Virus record (IMG/VR): IMGVR_UViG_3300025849_000037
Span: 1-61,030 of that record
Length of the DNA: 61,030 nucleotides
Reading direction: 5' to 3' (one strand)
DNA from: a virus
Lineage: Duplodnaviria; Caudoviricetes
Positions 1-61,030 of this stretch are shown piece after piece. Positions within the stretch are counted from its first letter, which is position 1, and the number at the start of each line of letters is the position of its first letter. Below the pieces are notes generated by a model, which was given only the letters and a program-made list of their open reading frames with translations, was not told the DNA's origin and searched no databases. The translations under genes were made by a program, and so were the position numbers.

Positions 1-169
1 ATATATATACACACACGCTACGGAATCGAAACGGAAATGGAATCCGAACCCCCCTACCCATGACTGCTGATGATTGGGTCAAATACTTTTAGCTTTTTGG
101 GTCTATGGTCGCAGACTCGCAGCCCCTCATTTAGTCACCCTTGATTTGAGACGTAGTAAAGACGGGGAC
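1..169. repeat. Left copy of 169-bp direct terminal repeat
   Basis: Aligns without gaps to 60862-61030 with 5 substitutions (positions 38, 56, 61, 91, 145). Confidence 0.95.
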
Positions 170-815
170 TATACCACCCCACACAAATACAATTCTAGTA
201 TCTATCCTTCTACGGGGTATCCTATAGACTAGACTAGTCTGCTAATGGGTACACGTTGTTAGTGCCTATGGATAAAGGGCTTTGTGAATAACGTTCGTAC
301 ATATACCATTCTAGGCGATGGCTTCTAGGGGCTATTTGGGGCGCTGTAGCGTAACCATTCTACGGGGGCTGCAGGCTGATTAGGGCGCTCGTATTGGGAC
401 GTTTTTGGATTGGCCCAAGATGACCTTTAATGAAATCTGACTTTTGAAAAAATCGGAGCGCTGTGCGCTAGTAATGGTGGGGGTTAAGGGGGATGGCTGT
501 GAATAAGGTTTGGATAAAAGGGTAGGGTCGGGACAAGGGTAGCTGTATCCCTTGCTATCACTAGGATTGATTAAAGGGTAGGCTTTGACAAGTAATTCCT
601 AGGACATATCCAAACATTTTATACTCTTTTTTTCATGGTATGAATCACTCAATTGTGGTTATTAGTCTGTAGGTATTTTTACTCATGCCGAAAAAACTTC
701 ATAGGTATTTTCACTCATTTTGCATTTCGGGCAAAAAAACTCTGTATCCTAGGCTAGGCTTGGGCTAGAGGGCTCTCCTCGCGCGGGTATCAATAATAGC
801 CGAGAAAGGGGCATG

Positions 816-845
816 TTGCAGGTATCGATAATGGTTGTACATTCG
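816..845 (+). promoter_or_regulatory. Bacteroidota-type housekeeping promoter (-33 TTG, -7 TACATTCG) heading the early region
   Basis: TTGC at 816-819, 19 nt upstream of TACATTCG (838-845), which is one mismatch from TAnnTTTG. Confidence 0.55.
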
Positions 846-849
846 GCTT

Positions 850-1390
850 GTCGAACGGGATGAGATATGAGACTCTTGGCGGAGCACATAAGAAGTATCT
901 ACCCGACCATCGAGGCCGAAAGGCTGACAAGCGCCAAACACATTAACAGCGCAGCCGATGTTGAGCAAGCTAACCTAGAGGAACCAACACCCGAGGGATT
1001 TAATAGCTGCGAACGACCAACCACACGTCCTCTACTAGGTACGGATGGAACACTGAGAGAGCCGCACGGCTTTGCAGCCTGCAGACTCAGTAAGTACAGC
1101 CTACCGAAAGACGAAGAGCCGAACGGATAGAGCGCCTTGGCGCAGGATGCACAACGGAACACGATGAATAGAAAGCGAGCAGCAGCAATGCAGTGAGCAG
1201 TAGTAACCGCTAGTACCGATACCGCAAGAGTCCACAAGTAAGCCCTAGAAACAAGTAAGACGCTGTTGGTTGCTTTGCCCAAAGGATGATGCTGATTGTA
1301 TCGATTGAGCCCGTAGGATGCGCACCAAGGTAGCGCCCCAAAAGACTACGCAATCGAGTGACCCGTAAGCCATCAACCAAGTAGGCATTG
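850..1390 (+). ncRNA. Candidate large structured non-coding RNA (~540 nt)
   Basis: Nested long-range helices 1099-1104/1381-1386, 1135-1144/1319-1330, 1146-1151/1297-1302, 1177-1183/1269-1275, 1190-1195/1261-1266; local stems 973-982/1028-1040 and 1052-1057/1086-1091; A-rich linkers; no convincing ORF. Confidence 0.6.
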
Positions 1391-1400
1391 ACCCATTCCC

Positions 1401-1479
1401 GTGGGGCGCTGAGTAAAGTACATGTTACGCAGAGTATATGTACCGAGACTCACAGCAGGAGCGAGACCTGCCGCCCTAC
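1401..1479 (+). ncRNA. tRNA-like element 1 (acceptor-like stem, long arm, T-like arm)
   Basis: GTGGGGCG/CGCCCTAC stem stacked on GCAGG-AGCGAGA-CCTGC (5 bp with 7-nt loop); inner arm TGAGT..GTACAT/ATGTAC..ACTCA. Confidence 0.6.
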
Positions 1480-1486
1480 CTAACCC

Positions 1487-1509
1487 GAGCCAACCACGGC
1501 TCACAAATT
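1487..1509 (+). promoter_or_regulatory. AACCAC-loop leader hairpin, copy 1
   Basis: GAGCC-AACCAC-GGCTC-ACAAATT, 8 nt before ATG 1518. Confidence 0.8.
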
Positions 1510-1517
1510 GAATCAAA

Positions 1518-1850
1518 ATGACCAACGCTGAAAAATTAATCGCAAGCCTAAGCCCCGTAAACACTAACCTAGATGGCGCACCAATCGTATGCTTAACGGC
1601 AGACCCGTACCTAGGTAAGTTTATGGTTAAGCAGCAGTTCAAACTAAGCCTAGGTAAGCCTACAACGCTGACCACATTGCACGACCCCGAAAGCGGTAGA
1701 CGAATCTTCACGGCACGTGATGAGGAAAGTCACGATGTTGCCGAGGGCGCTATGTCTAAGCTAGACTACGAATGCATGCGTAAATCGGAAGAGAACGCAA
1801 AACTAAGAACAGCATCGGTGGTTGCTCAATTGGGCTTCCTAGGTTGCTAA
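1518..1850 (+). CDS. Hypothetical early protein (110 aa)
   Basis: ATG follows the conserved leader and an A-rich initiation region. Confidence 0.75.
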   Translation: MTNAEKLIASLSPVNTNLDGAPIVCLTADPYLGKFMVKQQFKLSLGKPTTLTTLHDPESGRRIFTARDEESHDVAEGAMSKLDYECMRKSEENAKLRTASVVAQLGFLGC

Positions 1851-1888
1851 TTACCCGTGCTTCCCATAGCGAGGCGGCACGTTATTTA

Positions 1889-1949
1889 AGTGAGGGCAGC
1901 GGTAGACTGAAACAAGGTCTGCGCCTAGGTCGTGCTAGGACTGCTCACT
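1889..1949 (+). ncRNA. tRNA-like three-way-junction element 2
   Basis: P2 GTAGAC-TGAAACAAG-GTCTGC, G, P3 CCTAG-GTCGTG-CTAGG, bulged P1 AGTGAG(GG)CAG/CTGCTCACT. Confidence 0.7.
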
Positions 1950-1956
1950 ATTAATC

Positions 1957-1979
1957 GAGTCAACCACGACTCACAAATT
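1957..1979 (+). promoter_or_regulatory. AACCAC-loop leader hairpin, copy 2
   Basis: GAGTC-AACCAC-GACTC-ACAAATT; compensatory T-A pair relative to copies 1 and 3. Confidence 0.8.
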
Positions 1980-1987
1980 CAATCAAG

Positions 1988-2218
1988 ATGGCTAAAGTCA
2001 CTAGAAGTACTGCAGGCGCTAAGTTCGTCAGCAGCAAAGAAAAATTCAATGGGGCTCAGTTCGCTGAGTTCAACGTGAACGTTAAAGTAAGCAAGGGACG
2101 TGCTGAGCGGTTAGCTATGAAGGCTAGACTAGCTGAGGCTAAGGCTGTCATGGCTTTGCCCGTCAGCGCAGGATTCGTTGAAGTTAAGTCTAACCTAAAT
2201 TTCGCATACGCTGTATGA
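1988..2218 (+). CDS. Hypothetical basic early protein (76 aa)
   Basis: ATG after the conserved leader; coupled to the next ORF by ATGA. Confidence 0.75.
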   Translation: MAKVTRSTAGAKFVSSKEKFNGAQFAEFNVNVKVSKGRAERLAMKARLAEAKAVMALPVSAGFVEVKSNLNFAYAV

Positions 2219-2463
2219 AGAACGCTATAAAAGAAGTCATGTTCGACCTATTGGTGAACGGCTCAGTATCGGAAATGATGAAGACCATGCAGCTAGGTAT
2301 GCAGCATGACGAATACAACATCCGCTTCGTAGCGCAGCTATGTGCAGATGAGGCAGATACTATCGAGGAAGAGGGCGCTATGGTCGCAGACTATCCTAGT
2401 CTAGTTCATAGATGCGAATTGTACGCTGACGTAGTAACATTAATCGTAGATAGCAAGTTATGA
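2215..2463 (+). CDS. Hypothetical protein (82 aa)
   Basis: ATGA-coupled chain of ORFs. Confidence 0.75.
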   Translation: MKNAIKEVMFDLLVNGSVSEMMKTMQLGMQHDEYNIRFVAQLCADEADTIEEEGAMVADYPSLVHRCELYADVVTLIVDSKL

Positions 2464-2651
2464 ATCTAGTGAAACTAACCATAGCTGAAAGGCTAGAGAA
2501 AGAGCAGCTACATGAGGCATACGACCTAAGTAGAGCGTGCGGTGAGTTTAACGTATCCGAGGATATTGCTGAACTGATGTACTGCCCATGCGATGAGTAC
2601 CAAGATTTTCGTGAATCAATAATTAAAGGCCTAAAAGGAGAAAAGTTATGA
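2460..2651 (+). CDS. Hypothetical protein (63 aa)
   Basis: ATGA-coupled chain of ORFs. Confidence 0.7.
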   Translation: MNLVKLTIAERLEKEQLHEAYDLSRACGEFNVSEDIAELMYCPCDEYQDFRESIIKGLKGEKL

Positions 2652-2968
2652 GAGATTTCGTAGTAGGTACGCTACTCATTAGTGGTGGTGTTTGGTTCAG
2701 TCTAGGCTTCGCTTACGCTGACCGAGGCATGCTGCAAGCAGCAGCGGTATTCGGATTGCTAACCGCAGTCTTCTTGGTATGTGAGTTCATATACAATCGC
2801 GTCAAGCCTGCACCGCAGGTAGACGTTAAATGGATAGAAGTTAAACTGCAGGCCGTGCGCCATGGCGATGAGTTCTTCATCAAGAACCTAGAAACGGGCA
2901 CGCTGCGCCCTAGCAGCCGTGACGAAGTTTCCGAGTTATGGAACAAAGGTCAAATCACAATTAAGTAA
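2648..2968 (+). CDS. Hypothetical membrane protein, 2 TM segments (106 aa)
   Basis: Two N-terminal hydrophobic stretches; ATGA coupling. Confidence 0.75.
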   Translation: MRDFVVGTLLISGGVWFSLGFAYADRGMLQAAAVFGLLTAVFLVCEFIYNRVKPAPQVDVKWIEVKLQAVRHGDEFFIKNLETGTLRPSSRDEVSELWNKGQITIK

Positions 2969-2984
2969 TCTAAAACCCAACAAT

Positions 2985-3065
2985 ATGCTAGTAGCAACAT
3001 TAGTACTCACCTTAGTAGGTGCATCGTCTTCATTGGCTGTCGCAGGCCTCAAGTCTAACAAGTAA
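2985..3065 (+). CDS. Small hydrophobic peptide (26 aa, MLVATLVLTLVGASSSLAVAGLKSNK)
   Basis: Read by hand; A-rich leader, fills the gap before element 3. Confidence 0.5.
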   Translation: MLVATLVLTLVGASSSLAVAGLKSNK

Positions 3066-3073
3066 AAAATCAA

Positions 3074-3126
3074 TCTCTATGGCTGACTGCAATAAGGTCA
3101 GCGCCTACATCGTGGTAGGGTAGAGA
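3074..3126 (+). ncRNA. tRNA-like three-way-junction element 3
   Basis: P1 TCTCTAT/GTAGAGA (7 bp), G, P2 GCTGAC-TGCAATAAG-GTCAGC, G, P3 CCTAC-ATCGTG-GTAGG (5 bp) abutting P1. Confidence 0.8.
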
Positions 3127-3136
3127 CCTATTAACC

Positions 3137-3159
3137 GAGCCAACCACGGCTCACAAATT
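3137..3159 (+). promoter_or_regulatory. AACCAC-loop leader hairpin, copy 3
   Basis: GAGCC-AACCAC-GGCTC-ACAAATT before ATG 3167. Confidence 0.8.
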
Positions 3160-3166
3160 TAATTTT

Positions 3167-4528
3167 ATGTCACGTTTTGTAGCAGATGTGTGGGGTGTAG
3201 TAGCACTAGCACTAAATCAAGAAGATTCAAAGGTTCGCAACGTAGCGACCAAGTCTCAAATCCTATTCCGTACAGCAGGTATCAACCATGCAACCACGGG
3301 TAAGATGAGCACTAAGCAAGCCGTAGTGAAAATCAACGCATTAGTTCAAATGCATGTTGAGGCATTCAGCAATGGAAAATTGGGCGGGGAAGACTTAGAA
3401 TGTGTTCACGTTATCGTAGCGTACAAGTCCGATACCGATACACTCATGGTGTACGGGAACAGCGATGATACGCTAGGCGGTAAGCGCTTCGAGGAACTAG
3501 GCGAATACTCAAAATCTAGCGAGAAGAGATTCGGCAAATGGTACTTCAACATGGGGCAATTCCAAGATGCTGTTGCAGTCATGCTAGACCAATCATCAGC
3601 GCCCGAATTAATAGAGGCAGAAACCACAAAAACTGAAACCATGGGACAAACACCACAAGAATTGATGCTGCAGGCTATGAGCATGATGCAGCAAGGCGGC
3701 TCGATAGATGAGGCTGCTGTTGAGAAGATTGTAGACAAGCGTATCAAGGCTCAGTCTGCGACTAAGGTTGAAGTAGTGACAGCTACGGCAGTCAAGAAAG
3801 TAGACAAGGCTCACAAGAACTTTGCTGATGCTGTTGCGCTTGTAGGCCTAGGCAAGAATGTCACGCTGATTGGCGAGGCAGGGAGTGGTAAGTCTTACGG
3901 GGCTATCCAAATGGCTCGAGCGCTAGACCAAGAGTACGCTGTTGTATCATGTCACGGCAAGATGCAGTCGTTTGATTTGGTGGGCGCTATGTCTCCTACA
4001 ACGGGCGAATACATTAGCACTTCGCTACGTGATGCATACGAGAATGGTAAGGTGCTCATCCTCGATGAGTTTGACCGCTCTAACAACGAGACTACCATTG
4101 CGCTCAACGGAATCTTAGCAGGCGATTGCTACGGCTTTCCCGATGGTATGGTGCAGCGCCATGCAGACTTCAAGGTCATCGCATGTCAAAACACTTTCGG
4201 CACGGGTACATCTAAGGTGTACGGCTCAGCTAAGCCGCAGGATGGCTCAACGCTCACACGATTCACACGTGTTGTGTGGGACATCGACAGCAAGCTAGAG
4301 AAAGCTATATGTGGTGATACCCTTGCAACGAACGCTGTGCAGCGCATCCGCTCTAATGCTAAAGGCCTTGGATACGACCAAGTGCTTATCACACCGCGTC
4401 AAGCCATAGATGCTAACCAAATGGTACACAGCCTAGGTTGGTCAGTCAAGAAGGCTATCGAGTTCACTTGTCTCAACGGCCTAGCGGCTGATGTTCGCAA
4501 GAGATTATTGCAGGACGTTTCACTATAA
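3167..4528 (+). CDS. MoxR/CbbQ/CobS-type AAA+ ATPase
   Basis: Walker A GEAGSGKS, Walker B LILDEFDR, FPDG..RHADFKVIACQN, LTRF arginine-finger region. Confidence 0.85.
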   Translation: MSRFVADVWGVVALALNQEDSKVRNVATKSQILFRTAGINHATTGKMSTKQAVVKINALVQMHVEAFSNGKLGGEDLECVHVIVAYKSDTDTLMVYGNSDDTLGGKRFEELGEYSKSSEKRFGKWYFNMGQFQDAVAVMLDQSSAPELIEAETTKTETMGQTPQELMLQAMSMMQQGGSIDEAAVEKIVDKRIKAQSATKVEVVTATAVKKVDKAHKNFADAVALVGLGKNVTLIGEAGSGKSYGAIQMARALDQEYAVVSCHGKMQSFDLVGAMSPTTGEYISTSLRDAYENGKVLILDEFDRSNNETTIALNGILAGDCYGFPDGMVQRHADFKVIACQNTFGTGTSKVYGSAKPQDGSTLTRFTRVVWDIDSKLEKAICGDTLATNAVQRIRSNAKGLGYDQVLITPRQAIDANQMVHSLGWSVKKAIEFTCLNGLAADVRKRLLQDVSL

Positions 4529-4535
4529 CGTTCTT

Positions 4536-4588
4536 AGTCTGCGGCTAACTGAAATAAGGTTAGCGCCTAGGTCATGCTAGGGCAGACT
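4536..4588 (+). ncRNA. tRNA-like three-way-junction element 4
   Basis: P1 AGTCTGC/GCAGACT (7 bp), G, P2 GCTAAC-TGAAATAAG-GTTAGC, G, P3 CCTAG-GTCATG-CTAGG (5 bp). Confidence 0.8.
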
Positions 4589-4597
4589 GCTATTAAC

Positions 4598-4619
4598 GCC
4601 CCAACCACGGGCACAAATT
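4598..4619 (+). promoter_or_regulatory. AACCAC-loop leader hairpin, copy 4
   Basis: GCCCC-AACCAC-GGGC-ACAAATT immediately before ATG 4621. Confidence 0.7.
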
Positions 4620-4620
4620 A

Positions 4621-5517
4621 ATGCTTATGAGATATGAAATAATTGAAGGCAAGCGCATGCTCACCAAGGTGCAGACTACATTCTTTGAGTTTGTAGAGGG
4701 CTCTAATCGTGAGGGAAACGTACACAATTCTTCGGACAGCGATGGCTCTAGTTCGTTTTACGGAAACATCAAGTCCTACCAAGAGATGTACGATGCGTGC
4801 TACAGCGGACTGAATGTCAAGAAGATGATGAAAGCTACCGCAGACTTAAAGAGTCTAGTCAACCATGAGGTTGAGACCCCACGCAAAGCGATAGTAGGTG
4901 AGGCATTCAACGCTGCGGCATTCGCAGCAGGGCATCCTTACCACTACTACAAGGATGCTGATGAGTACGGAAAGCCTAGAGTACACTTAACATACAGCAC
5001 CAACGCTGTTGCAGGTGTACGTTCCGAGCAGTTCATTCGCCATGGCGCTGCACTATGTGCAGTCGCTGATGAGATAGCTGAGCAGGTAGATGTAAAGATT
5101 AGTCTATACATCACTAACGTGGGTGTTCTTGGCGGCAATGGCTGTCAAATAGTGACAATCAAAGACTACAACGAGGTTATCGACATCGCTAGAGTAGCTG
5201 CAACAGCGCATCCTAGTTTCTTTCGTCGCATCGGATTCTCATGGTTCGAGAACGCTAGCAGACTGATAGACTCACGTTGTTCTTCGGGATATGGCGGCTC
5301 TATGACGGGTACTAGCAGAGGGGCAGTCATCAGCGATGAAGAGTTCAAAGAGTGGGTAGGTGCTGCTAACGATGAAATGTTGGTAGACTTTCCTGCGCCC
5401 GATGAAGACCAATTCACGGATGATGACTACACCGCTGAATGGATTGCGAGCGCTATGGAAGACATTAGCGACTCAGTAGAAAAAGATGTTAAACATTGTA
5501 AATTATTTGGACTATGA
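4621..5517 (+). CDS. vWA/CobT-like partner of the AAA+ ATPase
   Basis: Directly downstream of a MoxR-type ATPase; alternating beta/alpha pattern and HPSFFRRIGF motif; MIDAS motif degenerate. Confidence 0.55.
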   Translation: MLMRYEIIEGKRMLTKVQTTFFEFVEGSNREGNVHNSSDSDGSSSFYGNIKSYQEMYDACYSGLNVKKMMKATADLKSLVNHEVETPRKAIVGEAFNAAAFAAGHPYHYYKDADEYGKPRVHLTYSTNAVAGVRSEQFIRHGAALCAVADEIAEQVDVKISLYITNVGVLGGNGCQIVTIKDYNEVIDIARVAATAHPSFFRRIGFSWFENASRLIDSRCSSGYGGSMTGTSRGAVISDEEFKEWVGAANDEMLVDFPAPDEDQFTDDDYTAEWIASAMEDISDSVEKDVKHCKLFGL

Positions 5518-5756
5518 TAGACTTTCATATTCACAAGGTCGGCTACCGAGAACGTTTGGTAGCTGACATCGAAACGGGGCTCATTGGCCGCATCTGCGAC
5601 AAGAACTACAGCGGACTATACGAGGTATGGTTCGAGCGTGAGCCATACCAACAAGACTTCGCTATAGAGAACAGCGAAGAGTACCCACTAGAGACTCAGT
5701 CCGAGTTTCCTAATCGTAAATTCAAAAAAGCTAATCAGTTAATCTTAATCGACTAA
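5514..5756 (+). CDS. Hypothetical protein (80 aa)
   Basis: ATGA coupling. Confidence 0.7.
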   Translation: MIDFHIHKVGYRERLVADIETGLIGRICDKNYSGLYEVWFEREPYQQDFAIENSEEYPLETQSEFPNRKFKKANQLILID

Positions 5757-5766
5757 AACCACTATT

Positions 5767-5970
5767 ATGAAAAATGCAATTTCTTACGACTTCGGGTCGT
5801 TAAACATCCAATCATTCTTTGATTCTGCTACGGGTGTAGCTAAGTCTGTCATCCGTTGGGATGGCGCTGCTATGGATACGCTGACTTACTCAGCTAACGA
5901 TGCAGACGATGCAGTAGACAAGGCTGTACGCTTTGCGACTGAGCGTGCTCAATTAGAATTGATAGGGTAA
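5767..5970 (+). CDS. Hypothetical protein (67 aa)
   Basis: ORF in the early gene chain. Confidence 0.7.
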   Translation: MKNAISYDFGSLNIQSFFDSATGVAKSVIRWDGAAMDTLTYSANDADDAVDKAVRFATERAQLELIG

Positions 5971-6149
5971 TGAGTATTAATAGAGAAATGTTCTTAGCGT
6001 ACGAGGCAGTACGTGAGAGCGGTTACTACAACATGTTCGATAGACGAGCATTAGACCTAGCTAACGAGATGAATGACCTAAGCATGGACATCGGTCAATG
6101 GTCGTTCATTATCACTAACTATGACAAACTTAAAAAGACTTACCTATGA
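5970..6149 (+). CDS. DUF5049-like small protein (59 aa)
   Basis: Read by hand: MSINREMFLAYEAVRESGYYNMFD...; TAATG and ATGA coupling on either side. Confidence 0.7.
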   Translation: MSINREMFLAYEAVRESGYYNMFDRRALDLANEMNDLSMDIGQWSFIITNYDKLKKTYL

Positions 6150-11303: not shown

Positions 11304-11494
11304 TCTCGGTGGCTAAGACAGCCATGGAGATGAACAACATACCACGAGTAGTACGGGCTCTTCAAGCGGAGATATTCGGACATAAGTCTGCGGCCTACAA
11401 GAGTAACGCTAAGAACTTATGGGTCACTAAGATAATATCTAGTATAGAGGTCGGTAAATCTTTTTACTACACGGACGAAAATTATAAATTATGA
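11219..11494 (+). CDS. Hypothetical protein (91 aa)
   Basis: ATG start; ATGA-coupled to the next gene. Confidence 0.65.
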   Translation: MDKRTIYSYVIEVKYKKGKAFVNKQMSIVSVAKTAMEMNNIPRVVRALQAEIFGHKSAAYKSNAKNLWVTKIISSIEVGKSFYYTDENYKL

Positions 11495-12204
11495 TTCTAA
11501 CTAAGAATAGAATGGTGGAGTTCTTTCCATCGGACAATCGCTACCTGCATTACGTTGCTCGAAAGAACGGTCTGTTCTTCATCAACGATGACGATGTGGA
11601 GTCTGCGAGGTTCTTTGCTATCGAGGCTGTTATGCGGCTAGTCAGTAAGGAAGTAGAGTACGAGGACGAGAAGCACTTGCAGAGCGTAGTGCAGATGAAT
11701 GTCCTGCGTGCTATCTATCGCATGATAGAATGGAATAGCGCTAAGAAAAACTCACAAGACATACGCAGCGAGTCTGAGTTCATCGGAAGTGATGATGACG
11801 GATTCTCTACGTATATCGAGTTAGCTGAGTCGGATGACAAACCATACGACAACACAATGGCTATCATCGAGGAGTACGCTCAAGAGGTGCTAGACGATAT
11901 CGGCTATGCCGTTTACAAAATGACTTTATCCGACGTTGCAAGAAAGGATATGGCTGAGACATTGGGTATATCGCCCGAAGCTATTCGCCAAAGACAAAAG
12001 AGCAACGTTAAAAAACTAAAACTAAAATACGACAGAGATGAGAATGACAAAGAAAGTTTTCGAGAGAATCGTAGAAAGATACGTGACAGAATACGACGTA
12101 AACCCATTGCAGAAAACAAGGCAACGGAACGTGCTAGTGCCGAGGCAAACGCTTTTCTACATACTCAATACGAAATTCCATATTCACTTCCAAACATTGA
12201 GTGA
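11491..12204 (+). CDS. Sigma-70/ECF-like transcription factor
   Basis: Region-2-like N-terminal half (DDVES..AIEAV..L) and region-4 HTH KDMAETLGISPEAIRQR..KKLK. Confidence 0.7.
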   Translation: MILTKNRMVEFFPSDNRYLHYVARKNGLFFINDDDVESARFFAIEAVMRLVSKEVEYEDEKHLQSVVQMNVLRAIYRMIEWNSAKKNSQDIRSESEFIGSDDDGFSTYIELAESDDKPYDNTMAIIEEYAQEVLDDIGYAVYKMTLSDVARKDMAETLGISPEAIRQRQKSNVKKLKLKYDRDENDKESFRENRRKIRDRIRRKPIAENKATERASAEANAFLHTQYEIPYSLPNIE

Positions 12205-19064: not shown

Positions 19065-22000
19065 CTATTTATTTAATATCATTACTATCTTAACTAGTGC
19101 GTTCTCACCATCCTTTAGAGCGTAGTATTTAAGGAAGTCTGCTTTGAACGCTTTGGCCTCTTGTGGAGTCATTGTATTCATTATGACCTTAGCAGCCATT
19201 GCAGCATCACGAGCATCGGGTGCTTTAACGTGGATGTCACGTATCGTGTTGATGTACTTGTTACTAGGTAGTTTGTCAGCTTCAACAGACTTGACTACTT
19301 TATCGCCCATGATAGAGTTAACAGTACCCTCAACCGCTAATGGATTATCCTTAACCTTAGACTTGACCTTATCAATCATTAAGTCTGTTCCTTTCTGCTC
19401 GTTGATAATCATTCTACCGATAGCTTCGTTTTCGTTAGTGATACCACGCTTACCTATTTGACGCTCACGCATCTTAATAGCCGCTACGGATTCCTTAGCG
19501 AAGTACCCCGTGAATCCACCCGTTACCATGAGTACTAATTTAGAACCCTCTAGTTTAGCCATCTTCCTAGCGTCAGCCGTAGACAAGAACTTCTTAGTTC
19601 CGAACGTTGTGACGTAGTAAGGATTCTTCTCTAAGGTCAAAGACCTTACGTTACTCATAGCTAGAACCAACTCAACGCCAACGTCTCCGTATACACCACC
19701 TGCCTTCAGCATAGTGATAAACGACATATCTCCACGTCCTTGCCCGTTGAACTTAGGCATACCATTAACTCTCTCCCATGCTTGGAAATTCTCATACCAA
19801 CTTCTATCCTCAAAGTTATTCTTCTTAGATTCGTCTGTAGCCATGAAGTCTAGCATGTTGTAGGCTGTTGTAGCCCACGCTTCCATTGCCCCTACAGGCA
19901 TAATTAACGGGTTCATATCGCTTAGCATACCTTTCTTGAACAAGCCCCAACGGAACTCTTTATCGAACCAAGAATCCTCTTCTTCCTCTTCACCACCGCC
20001 GATAGCACGAGCTAGAGACATGATTAAAGGAGCTATAACAAACTGACTCATTCCGTGGAACGCTGCAACTTCTAAAGCAGTACCACCAATAGAACGCAAA
20101 CCCTCTACAGTAGTTCCTTTCTTTCCTACTTTTTGGAAGTCTAACATAAGGTTCAACTTCTTGTTAATGAGGAAGTTAGCGAACGGCATAACCAACATCT
20201 GCATAACAGAGGCAATCTGCCCCGAGTTCAAATTACGGAACTCAGACTTGTCGCGACTAGTAGATATGTTTTGGTCTTTTGTAACCATGAGACTAGCGTA
20301 GTCTGCAGCGGCTGCATCGAAGTTTTTATTCCAATCTAACCAAGTCTCTTCAGTTACATTGCCTGTAAATCCATTCTCTTTTCTTTGGTATTGCTCGAAG
20401 TACATCAACCATGATGCAGTAGCTACAACTTGGTCAGTCTTTCTAAGACCGAACGTAGAGATATCAAAGCCCTTCTTGCGTACTTTAGCCCATTTACCAT
20501 TCTCTGTAACTGCGTTACCCTTAACTGTGGCGCTTACAGTCTCTTTGATGTAGTCTCTCTGACCGATGTCAGACTTGCTTAGTATAGCCTTAACTCCTTT
20601 AGGGTATTTACCCGTTAGAGTCTGTAGTACATATCCAATCAAAGAAAGTGGGTTACCACCCTCTAAAACGGTATTCATGATAGCACCCGACTGCTTAGCA
20701 ATCTGTGTAACGGCTGTACCGAAATAGTATAAGACGGTAAGATTGTTCAACTCTTTTGTTACTTTCTTGAGAGTCTGTCCCAACAACTCGTCTTGTTGCT
20801 CAGCGGCCACAGCATTCTCAGTAAGGAATAACATAACCTTCTTACGCACCTTTTGACGCTGCTCGGGCTGCAATACAGTAGCTTTAAACTCTTCGTTGGC
20901 CTCAGATGTCATAGTAGATATCTTAGCAACTGCAGGAGCTGTACGAGCCTTCACTTCGTTCTGTCTGTATGACTTAGATAATCCGTCTAGGAAGTTAAGG
21001 TCTAGATATCTAGTCTTGCTACCCATCGCCTCATCGTTACGCTCATACGTAGATGACGCTTGCTCTGTAGCCTTAGACATTCCATAGCTTCTAAATGCAG
21101 CTTGTACGTTCTCTATATTCTCTTGTAGAGCGTTTATATTATCGTTATTAGAACCAACAGAACGGAACTTAATAGGAAGGTAGTTATTCTCTTCTTTGAA
21201 GTTCATTCCTAGGAACTCTTCAGCATAGGTCTTTGTTCTGATGCCCTGTACTCCGAATGAGCTACGCATAGCCTCAACAAACTGAGCTTCCTTAGTCCCT
21301 TCGAAGGATTCCATAATCTCGTCGTAGTTCTTCTTTTTGTTGTTGCTAGTGTATAGAACCTCGTCAAATGCCGCTCTAATATCTTGGCGTTGACTCTCTG
21401 TAAATCGCTTATCACTAACCAATGACAACTCTAGACTAGCTACTACCTGAGCTAAATGCTGTGTTGTGTTCTTACCTTCAGGAACTTGAGAGAGCACAGA
21501 TAGAATCTGCATCTTGATTTGACTAGTTAATGAAGTTACACCGAGCTCTTTAGCTACCTCTATCATGTTCTCATCAAACACGTTAGATATACTATCTGCT
21601 TGACTTACAGCGGAGCGCAACTCAGAGAATCCAATTACCTCTAGGAATTGTGCTGTCTTTGCTTCACTAGCTAGGAATAGTCTACGGAAGTAAGATGGAG
21701 TGTTTTCGAAACGTCCGAATACCCCTTTACCTGCTCCCTCTTTCTCTCTAGACTTCATGTTCAATGCAGCCAATCTAGGGTTGTTATCGTTCTTAGCAAC
21801 CGCAACAGCAGCCAATGCCTGCATACCTAACGCTCTACCATTAACAGCAAAGTCATACATAGCAAACTCTAAACGCTTGAGTTCTAGTGGTGTTAGCTTC
21901 TGCATACGCGACTTAACAATCTCTGCAGCGACAGCATCCTCTGTGTTAGTAGGAACGCCGAATATCTGAGCCAAAGCCTCGTTAGACTCTAGTAGTCTGC

Positions 22001-25000
22001 GGAAGTTCAGGTAGGTTGGAAGTATAGCCTGATTGATGATAGTCTGCTTCTGTGCATTTAACTTTTCTGCCTTCTCTTCACTGTATAACTGAGACGCAAC
22101 TTCGAAGTCGTTGATGTCATTAAGGTCAAGACCCATTTCATCAGCAATAGCTTTAAGTTTCTTTTGTACACCTTTAAGGTCTTTCTCTGCAATCTTTTGC
22201 ATTAGTCCTTCGTACTCTGTAACCCAATCTGTCTCGTTCTCAAATGCTAAGTCTGTTGCTTGCTCTACTAAGGCTTTCTCCTGTAGTGCAACTTCCTCAG
22301 TTTTAAGGTTTTCGAATATCTCATTGAAGAACAATTTAGCACGACGGATATCAACGTATCCTAAGCCTTCAACTTCAACGTATGGTTGACCTAGTTTGCT
22401 TCCTCTGACGGATACAGACTTGGTACTGATGTTAAGGTCTTTTATAGCACTTTCTAGGAGTATCAACGACTCAGCAGACAACATAGCAGGGTTAAGGCTA
22501 GTCATGTCTAGAATCTGTTCTGCATAACTAATTAATGGGCTTCTAGATGTAGCTTTTAATTTAGTTAATCTATCTCTTAGTTTCTTTTGTTCTTTCTCTA
22601 CTTTTCTTAATCTGTTAGTATACTCATCTAATCCTTGAGAAGTTAATTGTTTATCTATAATTTTAACTACTTTATCTATAACAGAATTGAGTAATTCATA
22701 TCTAGCATCAGTATCTAAAACACCACGACCTTTTGCTCTAGAAACTTTCTTAGCAATACGAATTAATGTTTGAACTTGAGATGCTTTGATATCAACTCCT
22801 GCCTCTTTGATGAGATTCATCATTTCACGAAGGATAACATCCCCCGTTTTCTTTTCTTGTTTTAGAATAGCTGCAGCCTTCTTACGGAAGTCCTTAGCTT
22901 TAGCACTCTCAGCTTTGCGCTCTGCTTTACGCTTAGCAGCCAACTGAGCACTACGCTCTTTAGTTCCTTCACTCCAACCTTTCTTAGCACCCTTAGCGAA
23001 CTGAGAAGACTTAGCATAAACCAAGTTAGCATCAGCACGGCTCATGCCTTTAGCACGCAAGCTAGCGATGATGTCAGCCTTCTTCTCTCCCATTAGGATA
23101 CGTTGAGCAGTCTCGTCGACGATAGTAGCTTGGTGGAAGATAGCAGCCTTACGCTTTGTCTCGGGGTTAACAGACTCTGCCATTGCCTCAAAGGAAACTC
23201 CTTCGTTACGAGCAGCTCTTTCTAGAACCAACCCTACAGGAAGTACAGTGTTTATGAATTTTTTCTTACCATCCTTAAACTCTACCTCTTTTGCCTTGCC
23301 TTCCTCGACTAACTCTGCAGCAGCCTTATTCAAAGCGTCTTGACGGCCATCCATAGTCTGTCCCGCGATAAGAGATTCTAAAAGTACATCTCCATCGTAT
23401 GAAGTACCTGCATCAGATACAACTCTTTTTAATGACTTGTCTCCTGCTTTTTCAACAGAAACATAACCACTCTTAAGTGTAGAGATACCACTAATACCAA
23501 ACTCTTCTATATCTTTCTTGGTTGGTGCTTTAATTCTGTTTGCGAATGTAAAGTTACCTTGTCTTCTAGCTTCAACAGCAGCTTTCGCTATTAGTGTTTT
23601 CTTAGCATTTTGACGCTCTTTGCTGTCTTTTTCTAGGGTCTGCATCTCTGCAACCTCTTCCTTGTTTAAGAGACCTTCAGCCAAAGCCATTTCAACTTTA
23701 GATTCTCCCGACAGTTCTTTTTCACTAGTCGTAGATGCCGCTAAGTCTGCTACTTGATATATGTTATCTTTTCTATTAGCAATACCTAATGCTTTACCCT
23801 TGATGTCTGTAGAGTATGTAGAGTGCTTACCGTCTTGAGTAAGTACCTTTCCATCTTCACCTCTCTCAAACTCGTAGAAAGCGTAGATATCACCCGTGTT
23901 AAATCCGTTTTCAGTTAGGTATCCATCACGCATATCGTTTTGGTAGTCGTCCGCAGACTTCATACCTGCATTAGACATGAAGCTAGCCATCTCTCCACTA
24001 GGTTCTAAGAACATATTGAGACCACTCATTCTGTCTCCTTTAGAATCTGCTAGGTACGCTTCAAGGGTTTCGTGCTTTGCAACCTCAGTCATGAAGCTAC
24101 CACGGCCTTCTTTCTTGTCTTCTTTAGACTCCTTGTAAATTGCAACAGGTTTCTTTCCGTTTTCTGCTAGCGCATTGTAGAAAAACTTAACTGCTTGTAA
24201 TGGGTCTGTGAATCCTTCCGCAGGAACTTCTATGCTGAACGGGTTTCCACGCATAGGGTACTCAACAGACTTACCTTTATTTCTGTTAAGTGCTTCCATC
24301 AACTCGGTGTAGACGACTTGCGACGTACCTTTGTAGAATCTGTGTCCCGTCTTAGGGTGACCCGATACGATAGCAACTATGTCTGCATCTTTGACTAGAC
24401 CTTGTACCTCGTTGTTGTTTTTGTTTGTTGCCCATACTACACCATTGTCAGTATTAGATGAGTCTTGAGAGAAAGATATACCACCCTCTAACTCAATCTC
24501 AGTTCCGTCTAATGTCTTGTAAGTACCACGAGCCGATTGGTCACCCATCCAAAACAAAATCTTTGGAGCACGACCACCGTTTTCTTTCTTGAAGTTCTCA
24601 ACAACCTCAGCAAGGTTAGTAAAGTTTGTTTCACCGTTGATAAACGAACCTGCAAACTTCTTACCTTTAGCTACCTTTATGGTTGCTTCCTTTGCTGCAT
24701 TTAGCTTGTTTACCTCTTCCTCGTTCATTTGAAGGAAGTTATCAGTAGATACGGGGTTGTTTCCAAACGCTCCTTTAGACTCAGTCAACGCTTCTCCTAA
24801 TTGGAAGTCTGTAGTTACATTAGATACGTAGGTAGCAAACTCCTTGAAGCTAGGGCTAGCCTTTACGGGAATACCTGCAGCGTTCAACGACTTAGCCAAA
24901 GAACCCATAGCGGCACGTACAATTGAAGTACCTGCTCCCTCTTGGCTTATTGCACCTGTTGCGATATCAGCATTCATTTCAGCGAATACCTCTTCAACAG

Positions 25001-27566
25001 CTAAGTCTACGCCACCCTTCTTGAAGTTAGCGTTATATATGTTTCTGTACTTTGTAGCAGTCTCTAAGTCCATACCACGGAATGCAGCATCTACAAAACG
25101 CTTAGCATAACTAGGGTCAACCTCACGTAGTATAGCGTGGAATCCTTCGTGGTATGCAGTGTTGTTCTGAGCTATACTAGCCATGATGTGAACCGTACCG
25201 TCAGCAGCCTTGTAGAATCCGTTAGAACCTGCTATCTCTAGCTTGTCTACACCTGCCGCTTCTGCAGCCTCATCAAGGTTTCTGTGAATCATTACCTTTT
25301 GACCTTTGCTAGCTAATGCTTTAGCAACGTTCTTGATACCTTTCATTAACGGGGTATCGGGTAATTTTGTTTCTTCGTTTACCTCAATACTACCATCTAG
25401 TCCATTCATGAACTTAGTGTTGGTAGTTCTTTGAGTTTTGATATCGTTTATAGTAGACTCATACTTAGACTCAATGCTTTGTATAATTCCGTATTGAGCT
25501 TTAGCCTCTGCTCTTAGCTCTGCGCGTTGCTCTTTTGTTAACTTTAACTTACCACGCAACTTACCTAAAACGTTAGACAGCTTTTGGTTAGCTTCTATTG
25601 TGTTTTTAGCATCTTCGTCAGAGTATTGGTCATAAGCCATTTCCTGCTCTTCATTAAGAGTCTGTTGTAACTTCTCTAGTGACTTAAGCTTACTCTTAAT
25701 AACAGCACGCTTTGCGGTGTCGCTAGTGTTTCTTAACTCGTTAGCTAATGCCTGCTTGTTGCTTCTGATTTTAATCATCTCACTACGGATACCACCATAG
25801 CCTAAAGCGGATACACCTGCCGTAAGCAAGCTAGTCCCCTTGAATGCAGAACCTGAGATACGAGCGCCTGCACCCATACCAAAACCTAGTATAGCTGCGT
25901 CGATTACCTCGTACATGTTCATCTCCTCGTCGTTGATGGCGGCATGCACTATACCCGAACCTACGGTAGCTATGATTTCTTCTAAGCCTTCCTCAGCTCC
26001 GTCCTTTAGTATTCCCTTACCCGTCGCTGTAGCAAACTTCTTCATCTCCTTAGAGAGTAGACCCTTACCGAACAACTGCTGTTTTAGTTCTTTTTTACTT
26101 AAACCTTTGACTGCGCCAACACCCGACAATGCTTTAACATCGCTAGCAAATATCCTTTCAGACAATGTCTCTACTGCAGCATCGCCTAAAGCCATCATGA
26201 ACGCTTTACCATCGTCTACTTGACCATATGTATCAGCCCATGTACGTCCAAAGGTAGTTCCCCCCATAAATGCAGAAGATGCCCAAAGAGACGCTGAGGC
26301 ACTTGCTCCTAATCCACCTGTGGCATAAGCAATAGCAACTTGAGACAGCAACTGTGGTACAGTCTGTGCGGCCTGCACTGCAAATACAGCACCTGCGGCT
26401 TTAAGATTACCTTCTTCTAGGTTTGCAGCAATACCCTTTGATATCTCCTCTTCTGTTAAACCATACTCATTGTATGATGCATTTGTTCTAAATGTGTTTT
26501 GATATATGTCATCTTGAGCGCCTTCTCTGTCGTATAATGCTTGTACAGAGTTACTTATATCCATGATACCCGTAGCCATATCGTGTACGGCTAAACCCAC
26601 TATACTACGACCTTCCACCTTAGCGTTCTCTCTAGCTTGGTCAGCCAACTCTTTAGCAGCCACAGCATCCATATCCATCATAGTCAAACCTAAGTTCTTC
26701 TCATTGAATACAGCAATACCATTCTCGTCTACCTCTATTAACCCACCCTTAGATGGTGCGGCAGGCATTTCAAATTCATTTTCTGTTTGTGTTGCTTTAG
26801 TGTTGTCAAGCATTGCGTCATCATACGCAGCATTGACTTTGATTGCTTCTTGACCACGAATAATAGCGCGAACTTCGTCCTCGGTCTTAGCATTTCTAAT
26901 AAGTTCTTCTGTGTTTTTATCCGCAACTCTCTCTAGAGTCTTGAGAAATGGGGATGGCTGTTCGCTACGTTTTAGTTCGTTGAATATAAGATTCTCGCTA
27001 GTTCGCTCTTCACCTGTTATCAAAGCTGATAATGCGCTTCTTCCGACTTCACCTCTCGGTGTTTCAGTCTGAGCGTCTCTAAACTCTTCGTCCTTACCGC
27101 CCAATAAGCCTGCCCACCAACCTACGGCTTCTTCTTCTTTTTGGTGCATCTCACCTAGAGCAACACCTAAAGCGTTAGTCTCACGACCTTTGTTTACACT
27201 TATCTCTCCTTTTTCTACTTGGTCTGTTTTATCTTCTGCTTCAGCACCTTCGTTAATTTCGCCAATACCTTGCTGAAACGCAACAGGTTGAACGTCAAGA
27301 GATTGTAAGTCCGAGTCTGAATCGTCCCAAGACAATTCCGTAGAACCGACTTCGTTTTTTTTTTCAACGTCAACACCTACTAGTGTATTAAAGTCTTCTA
27401 GACTCCCGTTGTATCCTGTATTTGTAAATAGATTGTGTGCATCAGAACGAGCCTCTTCGTTCTCTGACAAGAGTGTTTTATAGTCTTCCAAGCTACCATT
27501 GTAGCCTGTTTCTTTAAATAACTTATACGAGTCCTGTAGAGCTTCTTCGTTCATAATGTCTATCAT
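19065..27566 (-). CDS. Giant virion/ejection protein (2833 aa), large polyvalent-type, with HExxH metallopeptidase motif
   Basis: Last gene of the internal-protein cluster; YHEGFH..EEVFAE motif; Gly/Ala-rich membrane-like segments. Confidence 0.7.
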   Translation of the reverse strand: MIDIMNEEALQDSYKLFKETGYNGSLEDYKTLLSENEEARSDAHNLFTNTGYNGSLEDFNTLVGVDVEKKNEVGSTELSWDDSDSDLQSLDVQPVAFQQGIGEINEGAEAEDKTDQVEKGEISVNKGRETNALGVALGEMHQKEEEAVGWWAGLLGGKDEEFRDAQTETPRGEVGRSALSALITGEERTSENLIFNELKRSEQPSPFLKTLERVADKNTEELIRNAKTEDEVRAIIRGQEAIKVNAAYDDAMLDNTKATQTENEFEMPAAPSKGGLIEVDENGIAVFNEKNLGLTMMDMDAVAAKELADQARENAKVEGRSIVGLAVHDMATGIMDISNSVQALYDREGAQDDIYQNTFRTNASYNEYGLTEEEISKGIAANLEEGNLKAAGAVFAVQAAQTVPQLLSQVAIAYATGGLGASASASLWASSAFMGGTTFGRTWADTYGQVDDGKAFMMALGDAAVETLSERIFASDVKALSGVGAVKGLSKKELKQQLFGKGLLSKEMKKFATATGKGILKDGAEEGLEEIIATVGSGIVHAAINDEEMNMYEVIDAAILGFGMGAGARISGSAFKGTSLLTAGVSALGYGGIRSEMIKIRSNKQALANELRNTSDTAKRAVIKSKLKSLEKLQQTLNEEQEMAYDQYSDEDAKNTIEANQKLSNVLGKLRGKLKLTKEQRAELRAEAKAQYGIIQSIESKYESTINDIKTQRTTNTKFMNGLDGSIEVNEETKLPDTPLMKGIKNVAKALASKGQKVMIHRNLDEAAEAAGVDKLEIAGSNGFYKAADGTVHIMASIAQNNTAYHEGFHAILREVDPSYAKRFVDAAFRGMDLETATKYRNIYNANFKKGGVDLAVEEVFAEMNADIATGAISQEGAGTSIVRAAMGSLAKSLNAAGIPVKASPSFKEFATYVSNVTTDFQLGEALTESKGAFGNNPVSTDNFLQMNEEEVNKLNAAKEATIKVAKGKKFAGSFINGETNFTNLAEVVENFKKENGGRAPKILFWMGDQSARGTYKTLDGTEIELEGGISFSQDSSNTDNGVVWATNKNNNEVQGLVKDADIVAIVSGHPKTGHRFYKGTSQVVYTELMEALNRNKGKSVEYPMRGNPFSIEVPAEGFTDPLQAVKFFYNALAENGKKPVAIYKESKEDKKEGRGSFMTEVAKHETLEAYLADSKGDRMSGLNMFLEPSGEMASFMSNAGMKSADDYQNDMRDGYLTENGFNTGDIYAFYEFERGEDGKVLTQDGKHSTYSTDIKGKALGIANRKDNIYQVADLAASTTSEKELSGESKVEMALAEGLLNKEEVAEMQTLEKDSKERQNAKKTLIAKAAVEARRQGNFTFANRIKAPTKKDIEEFGISGISTLKSGYVSVEKAGDKSLKRVVSDAGTSYDGDVLLESLIAGQTMDGRQDALNKAAAELVEEGKAKEVEFKDGKKKFINTVLPVGLVLERAARNEGVSFEAMAESVNPETKRKAAIFHQATIVDETAQRILMGEKKADIIASLRAKGMSRADANLVYAKSSQFAKGAKKGWSEGTKERSAQLAAKRKAERKAESAKAKDFRKKAAAILKQEKKTGDVILREMMNLIKEAGVDIKASQVQTLIRIAKKVSRAKGRGVLDTDARYELLNSVIDKVVKIIDKQLTSQGLDEYTNRLRKVEKEQKKLRDRLTKLKATSRSPLISYAEQILDMTSLNPAMLSAESLILLESAIKDLNISTKSVSVRGSKLGQPYVEVEGLGYVDIRRAKLFFNEIFENLKTEEVALQEKALVEQATDLAFENETDWVTEYEGLMQKIAEKDLKGVQKKLKAIADEMGLDLNDINDFEVASQLYSEEKAEKLNAQKQTIINQAILPTYLNFRRLLESNEALAQIFGVPTNTEDAVAAEIVKSRMQKLTPLELKRLEFAMYDFAVNGRALGMQALAAVAVAKNDNNPRLAALNMKSREKEGAGKGVFGRFENTPSYFRRLFLASEAKTAQFLEVIGFSELRSAVSQADSISNVFDENMIEVAKELGVTSLTSQIKMQILSVLSQVPEGKNTTQHLAQVVASLELSLVSDKRFTESQRQDIRAAFDEVLYTSNNKKKNYDEIMESFEGTKEAQFVEAMRSSFGVQGIRTKTYAEEFLGMNFKEENNYLPIKFRSVGSNNDNINALQENIENVQAAFRSYGMSKATEQASSTYERNDEAMGSKTRYLDLNFLDGLSKSYRQNEVKARTAPAVAKISTMTSEANEEFKATVLQPEQRQKVRKKVMLFLTENAVAAEQQDELLGQTLKKVTKELNNLTVLYYFGTAVTQIAKQSGAIMNTVLEGGNPLSLIGYVLQTLTGKYPKGVKAILSKSDIGQRDYIKETVSATVKGNAVTENGKWAKVRKKGFDISTFGLRKTDQVVATASWLMYFEQYQRKENGFTGNVTEETWLDWNKNFDAAAADYASLMVTKDQNISTSRDKSEFRNLNSGQIASVMQMLVMPFANFLINKKLNLMLDFQKVGKKGTTVEGLRSIGGTALEVAAFHGMSQFVIAPLIMSLARAIGGGEEEEEDSWFDKEFRWGLFKKGMLSDMNPLIMPVGAMEAWATTAYNMLDFMATDESKKNNFEDRSWYENFQAWERVNGMPKFNGQGRGDMSFITMLKAGGVYGDVGVELVLAMSNVRSLTLEKNPYYVTTFGTKKFLSTADARKMAKLEGSKLVLMVTGGFTGYFAKESVAAIKMRERQIGKRGITNENEAIGRMIINEQKGTDLMIDKVKSKVKDNPLAVEGTVNSIMGDKVVKSVEADKLPSNKYINTIRDIHVKAPDARDAAMAAKVIMNTMTPQEAKAFKADFLKYYALKDGENALVKIVMILNK

Positions 27567-60861: not shown

Positions 60862-61030
60862 ATATATATACACACACGCTACGGAATCGAAACGGAAACG
60901 GAATCCGAACCCCCCTCCCCACGACTGCTGATGATTGGGTCAAATACTTTTGGCTTTTTGGGTCTATGGTCGCAGACTCGCAGCCCCTCATTTAGTCACC
61001 CTTGAATTGAGACGTAGTAAAGACGGGGAC
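60862..61030. repeat. Right copy of 169-bp direct terminal repeat
   Basis: Matches 1-169 with 5 substitutions. Confidence 0.95.

Follow-up and report, generated by a model that had tools for sequence, protein, structure and literature searches.

A candidate large structured non-coding RNA at the head of the early region of a marine phage related to phages of Bacteroidota

The virus record IMGVR_UViG_3300025849_000037 (Duplodnaviria; Caudoviricetes) is a 61-kb marine phage genome, and the window analyzed here is that complete record of 61,030 nucleotides (nt). Near its left end, positions 849 to 1485 of the + strand hold a whole conserved unit of ~637 nt that extends from the motif TGTCRA to a CCUAACC tail, both ends being predicted. 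Across this unit, compensatory base changes exceed those in controls and no open reading frame (ORF) is conserved, the pattern of a structured non-coding RNA. We propose that it is a previously uncatalogued large structured non-coding RNA of ~640 nt, made as a free-standing early phage RNA; judging from sequence comparisons, we give this reading a probability of roughly 0.6. That the unit is a structured RNA of some kind is very probable. If it is one, a free-standing molecule is the form that we favor and a cis-acting leader is possible but unlikely; readings at the level of DNA, of a protein, or of chance are improbable even when taken together. A first-pass annotation, made from the letters of the DNA, had suggested a new class of large RNA covering ~540 nt (850-1390). 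That suggestion is supported by conservation without an ORF, a maintained length, compensatory changes in four domains, a + strand asymmetry, and the lack of an Rfam match. Its extent had to be redrawn: the unit is large and structured, as proposed, but measures ~640 nt and includes a “tRNA-like element” that had been taken for its 3′ boundary. To our knowledge, few bacterial or phage RNA classes of >500 nt have well-supported structures, and each of them opened new biology.

Homologues were collected by two routes. A protein search with the AAA ATPase encoded next to the unit led to five viral loci, whose upstream DNA was then aligned to the window, and a pattern built from two invariant blocks retrieved 22 metagenome loci, 16 of them homologues and 6 chance matches. 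Including the window, in which the unit is single copy, this amounts to 20 phage loci in four sequence types that exchange modules as a mosaic. The pattern-found homologues carry the 3′ element of the unit by construction, and all five protein-found loci carry it too. The upstream DNA of L001 is 95% identical to window 600-1520, L003 matches window 707-1513 at 64% over 878 nt, L002 and L004 align at 64% and 61% (from window 707 or 610), and L005 aligns across the last 200 nt. The neighboring AAA protein is only 59 to 63% identical. Invariant blocks of 15 to 19 nt survive where the adjoining sequence differs by ~40%, and conservation is far lower in the leftmost 700 nt of the intergenic region that holds the unit. 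The spacing from TGTCRA to CCCATTCCC is 542 to 544 nt in type I, 529 to 541 nt in type II, 540 to 560 nt in type III, and 427 to 429 nt in the short type IV.

Mosaicism is evident in L029 (type IV body with a type I 3′ end), L036 (type II body with a type I 3′ end), and L020, a mixture of three types. Recombination junctions between bodies and 3′ ends lie near the 3′ element and the hairpin module that follows it, and one RNA-library contig (X18) changes type exactly at 1499. Positions 1 to 110 of L024 represent a partial fifth sequence type, in which a hairpin reading GCTTGC-CTAT-GCAAGT takes the place of GCGYAC-CAAG-GU.GCGC; the contig stops before the rest of the RNA. Further searches added no relatives: blastn of window 1-3200 against 50,697 phage records found no match, and a protein-alignment scan returned nothing beyond the same five loci. 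All three matches of a motif scan of genome contigs were due to chance, as were the two new loci of a second scan of viral contigs (L044 and L045), both of which are coding sequence.

No ORF is conserved on either strand of 849-1485, and the indels of relatives are not multiples of three. The window itself has an 87-amino-acid (aa) ORF with an ATG start at 867-1130 (+) and a 127-aa ORF at 899-1282 (−). For the former, searches of Pfam and PHROG and tblastn against phages gave no match; its start codon reads ACG instead of ATG in L016 (95% identical), and a 1-nt insertion breaks its frame in L018 and L031 (~90% identical). The latter is found in the window only and in none of the relatives. Three of 11 relatives (L018, L020, and L005) are without any + strand ORF of at least 35 aa in the whole unit. 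The first-pass view that the region holds no credible gene is thus borne out.

At least 20 helices are backed by base-pair covariation, which is unusually dense for so few sequences. For domain 5 (1267-1394), the tested structure was drawn solely from the minimum free energy (MFE) fold of the window; in a plain MAFFT alignment of six distinct sequences (A8; 92% identical), 8 of its 38 pairs are compensatory and 96.1% of cells are paired, with 0 of 500 shuffles as high and at most one such pair in slid controls. Domain 3 (1033-1108), in a plain MAFFT alignment of 13 distinct sequences (A14), has 7 compensatory pairs of 17 and 91.4% of cells paired, compared with 0 to 2 pairs and 20 to 47% in slid controls; shuffles were as high in 8 of 500 cases for pairs and in 0 of 500 for the covariation score. 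In the 3′ element (MAFFT, 13 distinct sequences), 5 of 16 pairs are compensatory and 100% of cells are paired (slid controls, 0 to 1; shuffles as high, 16/500 for pairs and 0/500 for the covariation score). Alignments fitted to a structural model gave the largest counts: 19 of 38 pairs in domain 5 (A9, model R1, 13 distinct sequences, 93.4% paired, 0/500 shuffles, slid controls 2 to 5) and 20 of 27 in domain 1 (849-962; model R2, nine distinct sequences, 97.6% paired, 0/500 shuffles, slid controls 0 to 4).

Single-sequence MFE folds, computed per type, give the same 5′ architecture from differing sequences; those of types I and III also agree on the helix-enclosed 3′ domain. Eleven helices per sequence were also checked by regular expression, which confirmed that both strands of each are present, complementary, and correspondingly placed. 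Consensus folding of the whole region on one MAFFT alignment produced inconsistent long-range models and was dropped, and RNAalifold on a mixed-type alignment of 1265-1400 gave 0 pairs because the types were misaligned. Across the tested helices, there are 60 G-U cells and 15 A-C cells. The G-U excess, which had been noticed at first pass, and the GNRA loops point to the + strand as the one that folds.

At least six domains make up the fold of the unit, namely one long stem that holds a hairpin, three junctions of several helices each, a 3′ domain enclosed by a helix, and a three-way junction in the 3′ element. Domain 1a (856-905) is formed by P1 (856-859/902-905) and P1′ (863-868/895-900), with an inner hairpin P1a (873-876/881-884) and the conserved strand CACAUAAGAAG at 885-895; in the fitted alignment A13, compensatory changes affect 2 of 4, 6 of 6, and 3 of 4 of the respective pairs. 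Domain 1b (908-960) is a three-way junction of P2 (908-912/956-960), P2a (914-917/922-925), and P2b (931-934/949-952), with compensatory changes at 4 of 5, 2 of 4, and 3 of 4 pairs. The GAAA tetraloop picked out in the first reading (918-921) indeed caps a covarying hairpin, P2a. Domain 3 (1036-1103) is a second three-way junction, closed by UAGG/CCUA (1036-1039/1100-1103) and containing P3 (1053-1057/1086-1090), whose span is exactly 38 nt in all sequences, P3a (1060-1063/1068-1071), and P3b (1073-1076/1080-1083). The local domains formerly drawn at 908-960 and 1052-1091 are accordingly real and supported by covariation.

Domain 4 (1125-1233) is partly resolved. At one pair of its closing stem, GGAU/GUCC (1125-1128/1230-1233), six of 11 sequences have G-C and the other five A-U; inside this domain are the hairpins GCGC-CUUG-GCGC (1132-1143), compensated at 1134/1141, and GCA-GCAA-UGC (1182-1191), compensated in type II. 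Domain 5 (1267-1394) is closed by helix X (UGCC 1276-1279/GGCA 1384-1387), which has five compensated variants, and encloses P5a (1284-1293/1368-1378), P5b (1301-1307/1351-1357), P5c (1312-1316/1346-1350), and the hairpin GCGCAC-CAAG-GU.GCGC (1320-1336). The 3′ element (1392-1485) is a three-way junction with the invariant CCCAUUCCCGUGGGG, and an 8-bp stem (1401-1408/1472-1479) around two hairpins, one with the conserved loop GUUACGYAGAGUAU and one at 1455-1459/1467-1471. This is the “tRNA-like element” of the first-pass annotation; ARAGORN does not call it a tRNA, and it lies inside the same conserved unit. Four unpaired blocks are invariant (CACAUAAGAAG, GAUACCGCAAGAGUYCAC.AGUAAG, CCCAUUCCCGUGGGG, and GUUACGYAGAGUAU). 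The hairpin loops read on the + strand are GAAA or GAGA, GAGA, GUAA, GAUA, and GCAA. The RNA has up to five GNRA loops and a complementary loop pair, CUUG/CAAG. Invariant unpaired blocks, GNRA loops, and a loop pair are features of self-folding RNAs with tertiary contacts.

Of the five long-range helices first proposed, four lack conservation, although all five named segment pairs exist in the window (6/6, 6/6 plus 4/4, 6/6, 7/7, and 6/6 pairs). The helix 1099/1381 forms in type I and, if shifted by 1 nt, in type II, but in no other type; better-supported partners exist for each of its arms, UAGG 1036-1039 with CCUA 1100-1103 and UGCC 1276-1279 with GGCA 1384-1387. CGCA/TGCG and the pairs 1146/1297, 1177/1269, and 1190/1261 are lost outside type I or broken within it. 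What survives is CCTTGG/CCAAGG, which 11 of 13 sequences retain and for which L005 provides a single compensatory variant (CCTCGG/CCGAGG). Because each of these segments caps a hairpin with local compensation (GCGC-CUUG-GCGC for one, GCGYAC-CAAG-GU.GCGC for the other), a CUUG/CAAG loop-loop contact, for which L005 is the one variant, is the likelier meaning.

The unit resembles no family searched. The whole window gave 0 matches to Rfam 15 at the gathering score, with the GOLLD and ROOL models among those used; window 1-2200 at E up to 10 gave five weak matches, all to unrelated families; and L003, L004, L005, L020, and L029 gave 0 matches at E up to 0.1. ARAGORN found 0 tRNA or tmRNA genes in the 61,030 nt. 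Comparison with ROOL, GOLLD, RNase P, tmRNA, and group I/II introns, the check proposed at first pass, thus returned no match. Readings as a tRNA-like element, tmRNA, riboswitch, intron, or guide RNA were rejected, there being no Rfam or ARAGORN match and no fitting neighbor gene. The literature searched does not describe this RNA.

Directly upstream is a promoter-like site (816-845, +) composed of TTGCAG (816-821), a 16-nt spacer, and TACATT(CG) at 838-845 (TACATTCG). The hexamer ends exactly 5 nt before TGTCRA in all 11 sequences that reach that far (TACATT in six, TATGTT in two, CATATT in two, and TTAATT in one), and a TTG stands 33 to 36 nt upstream in 10 of 11 relatives. Bacteroidota promoters have the consensus TTTG at −33 and TAnnTTTG at −7 with a spacer of ~19 to 21 nt. 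The window has TTG, 19 nt, and TACATTCG, a partial −33 TTG/−7 TAnnTTnG arrangement, and a weak sigma-70 promoter fits equally well; the exact TAnnTTTG (TATGTTTG) occurs only in L018 and L031, and the remaining relatives retain just nAnnTT. From the fixed distance in relatives, we infer that 816-845 is used as a promoter, as first suggested; its assignment to the Bacteroidota type is ambiguous, and the match is weak. A strongly conserved block at 741-790, 60 to 110 nt upstream of the promoter-like site (CTGTATCC ... GGCTTGGGMTAGAGGG ... CCTCGCGCGGGT), is kept in types I to III.

The downstream boundary is a short module (1487-1520, +) in which the hairpin GAGCC-AACCAC-GGCUC is followed by ACAAAUU and, after 8 nt, by the start codon (AUG, 1518) of the first early gene. 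The window holds three exact copies of hairpin-ACAAATT (1487-1509, 1957-1979, and 3137-3159), against 0 expected, and a degenerate copy near 4597-4619. In all, there are 16 instances in six records, every one with 5/5 pairs, in compensated stem variants (GAGCC/GGCTC, GAGTC/GACTC, and GACCC/GGGTC) with an ACCAC-containing loop, followed by ACAAATT and, 7 to 9 nt on, ATG. The module sits before early genes only, on the + strand, and could be a hairpin promoter, a processing site, or a translation signal. Since it is missing after the RNA in L032 and L035, we regard it as a boundary module and not as part of the RNA. A 79-nt intergenic module is also repeated (1905-1983 and 3085-3163, 78% identity), with an inner hairpin that differs by a compensated change between copies (CCTAG/CTAGG and CCTAC/GTAGG); the stretch 1893-1987 is likewise conserved in relatives.

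In the reading that we favor, RNA polymerase would start at ~850 from the promoter-like site, so that the RNA would be made before any phage protein gene, and the transcript would end or be cut near 1480-1500, ahead of the hairpin-ACAAAUU-AUG module. The stable, compact RNA would then bind a partner (a host or phage protein, or its own copies) during host takeover rather than serve as a leader for a particular gene. Such a role is suggested by the adjoining downstream gene, which differs among relatives while the RNA is kept, and by the invariant unpaired blocks, the GNRA loops, and the CUUG/CAAG loop pair. A more speculative version, which we consider doubtful, is a self-folding RNA class that acts largely alone, by RNA-only assembly through the CUUG/CAAG loops or as a ribozyme, and that the phage makes first so as to disable a host function or turn it to its own use; such a class may be a sequence-divergent counterpart of the early long non-coding RNAs of crAss-like phages.

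Several results weigh against a free-standing RNA or limit the case for it. Transcription data consist of low-depth contigs from four RNA runs (X16, X18, X19, and X20) on parts of 1-6000, which possibly derive from DNA and are silent on strand, ends, and level. Some of these contigs map upstream of 850, and the proposed start is spanned by two (697-889 and 767-1017). The promoter-like site matches sigma-70 weakly (8/12), and a consensus scan left it unlisted. Independent events are few because there are only four to five lineages with mosaic exchange. The two largest compensatory counts (19/38 and 20/27) come from model-fitted alignments that lean toward the structure, so that the plain-alignment figures are cleaner, and domain 1 in a MAFFT alignment of the four type I sequences has just 2 of 27 compensatory pairs (98.1% paired, 29/500 shuffles as high, slid controls 0 to 1). 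A naive helix scan of one global MAFFT alignment found nine helices with at least two covarying pairs, compared with 0 to 6 in 20 column-permuted controls. Folding energies are ordinary: 850-1390 has an MFE of −138.3 kcal/mol versus a shuffle mean of −140.3 (z +0.35; 65 of 100 dinucleotide shuffles fold as well), 849-1485 has z −1.10 (3 of 20 shuffles as good), and domains 1, 3, and 5 have z −0.85, −1.40, and −1.80. A folding energy no better than that of shuffles was among the results that the first-pass annotation named as refuting its candidate, and by this measure the claim formally fails. The − strand of 850-1390 gives z +0.43, and the 3′ element is the sole domain that stands out (z −4.30; 0 of 200 shuffles as stable); folding energy against shuffles is a weak test for large RNAs. 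The model covers the unit except at 962-1035 and over much of 1104-1270; how the domains are arranged overall is tentative, and action in trans is purely our inference.

The strongest competing explanation, which we nevertheless think unlikely, is a cis-acting 5′ leader that stays on the early mRNA or acts during its synthesis, where it would affect transcriptional read-through or the processing, stability, or translation of the early genes. As a leader would, the RNA immediately precedes the first early gene and shares its strand, with no terminator-like site between. The layout is also like that of the T7 early region, in which host promoters are followed by a non-coding leader and RNase III hairpin sites precede each early gene; the order of terminal repeat, promoter, non-coding stretch, and repeated hairpin before each early gene is shared. 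The hairpin here differs in having 5 bp and a conserved ACCAC-containing loop, and its cleavage would be hypothetical. The T7 leader is not known to be a multi-domain, conserved RNA. One possible switch is an alternative pairing of CCGUGG (1399-1404), in the 3′ element, with CCACGG (1494-1499), in the loop and 3′ arm of the module hairpin, which would exclude both local structures. The complementarity of CCGTGG and CCACGG is present in all 10 sequences having both, but because neither segment ever varies, it is uninformative either way. What tells against a leader is that the downstream gene varies, that the RNA is kept in L032 and L035 where the hairpin module is missing, and that 640 nt and six domains far exceed the needs of known leaders.

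We consider it improbable that the unit functions as DNA, for instance by acting as an origin of replication, by directing packaging or ejection, or by providing an array of promoters, with hairpins formed in single-stranded DNA, or that the RNA serves only as a replication primer. Its position would suit such a role: bases 1-169 recur at 60862-61030 as an imperfect direct terminal repeat (169 nt, 97% identity, five mismatches), so that the unit, which heads the + strand arm, lies ~680 nt inside the repeat at the genome end. Early promoters of phage N4 are hairpins recognized as DNA, and this phage encodes a protein of virion size (2833 aa) that belongs to no family recognized here. Duplex or cruciform DNA would not be expected to show the wobble asymmetry of the tested helices, nor would such sites be expected to contain nested junctions and long-range helices spanning ~110 nt, and the composition of the region (52% G+C, 16% T) is unlike that of an AT-rich origin.

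Less probable still is an ordinary, weakly constrained spacer whose covariation is an artefact of relatedness, recombination, and model-fitted alignment. The ordinary folding z-scores, the few independent lineages, and the two counts from fitted alignments are what such a spacer would give, but plain MAFFT alignments still yield 8/38, 7/17, and 5/16 compensatory pairs against 0 to 2 in slid controls, and the invariant blocks amid ~40% divergence contrast with the far less conserved left 700 nt. Least likely of all, small proteins from ORF 867-1130 or the − strand ORF 899-1282, with the structure incidental, would account for the presence of these ORFs in the window but not for their loss in relatives that are 90 to 95% identical, the lack of a family or tblastn match, or indels that are not multiples of three.

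The genome around the unit is organized in two arms. Genes on the + strand from 1518 to ~17 kb include those for an AAA ATPase, ERF, a PDDEXK-like protein, and a helicase, and structural genes, among them those for terminase, portal, and the 2833-aa protein, run on the − strand from ~60 kb back to 19 kb. The terminase matches 117 phage records, all at <60% identity and nearly all with Bacteroidota hosts (Flavobacterium, 68; Cellulophaga, 15; Bacteroides, 3; and others). The phage is thus a marine podophage related to phages of Bacteroidota, and the unit is conserved in a clade of such marine podophages.

Two kinds of phage RNA invite comparison. GOLLD and ROOL are several hundred nt long and frequently lie near tRNA genes. 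The unit is like them in size class, in its many-helix, multi-junction architecture, and in its association with phages. It differs in having no covariance-model match and 0 tRNA genes in 61 kb, and in heading the early operon of a marine podophage related to Bacteroidota phages. GOLLD, ROOL, and a third RNA are reported to assemble into complexes made of RNA only; the CUUG/CAAG loops could, speculatively, serve similar RNA-RNA contacts.

The closest biological precedent, by a likeness that is positional, appears to be the crAss-like Cellulophaga phage phi14:2. Two long intergenic regions near the left end of that phage give early, abundant, rightward transcripts, which the authors describe as long non-coding RNAs of unknown function (bioRxiv 10.1101/2020.03.07.982082). 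The phi14:2 record has ~1.7 kb free of genes at 2905-4601. Shared with the window are a related terminase and a long gene-free stretch near the left end of the early region, in a phage that there has a marine Bacteroidota host. The phi14:2 stretch is A+T-rich (71%, versus 47% here), and no published structure of it is known. In searches for similarity to phi14:2, nhmmer with the family profile found none, model R1 had a best E of 3.3, and model R2 gave none at E up to 1. No comparable gene-free stretch was seen in MW202828.1 (12 kb examined) or Flavobacterium phage elemoA 7-9A (12 kb plus 25.7 kb examined).

The location is telling, as this would be the first transcript of the entering genome in a lineage related to crAss-like and Flavobacteriia phages. 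If the unit is a stable early RNA, it would provide a structural starting point for understanding the early non-coding RNAs that phi14:2 expresses at high level, and RNA-based host takeover may be common in Bacteroidota phages. A 640-nt in vitro transcript can be probed and imaged without the uncultured host.

Further features of the genome were noted. The 2833-aa ORF (19065-27566, −), located in the structural gene region, gave no sequence match in Pfam, PHROG, or PDB and lacks a DFDxD motif; in size alone, it resembles the virion RNA polymerases of N4-like and crAss-like phages. A 237-aa early protein (11491-12204, +) has a sub-threshold match to sigma-70 region 4 (E 0.0056; 16.6 bits versus a cut-off of 24.1), and a protein atlas gave no lead for a conserved 76-aa early protein encoded nearby (1988-2218). 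The record is classed as being without end repeats despite the repeat at 1-169/60862-61030, and the start of L003 almost coincides with that of the window (window 27 corresponds to L003 position 5). In the gene-free left end, short direct repeats occur at 670-686/702-718 (TAGGTATTTTYACTCAT) and 513-526/569-582 (GATWAAAGGGTAGG).

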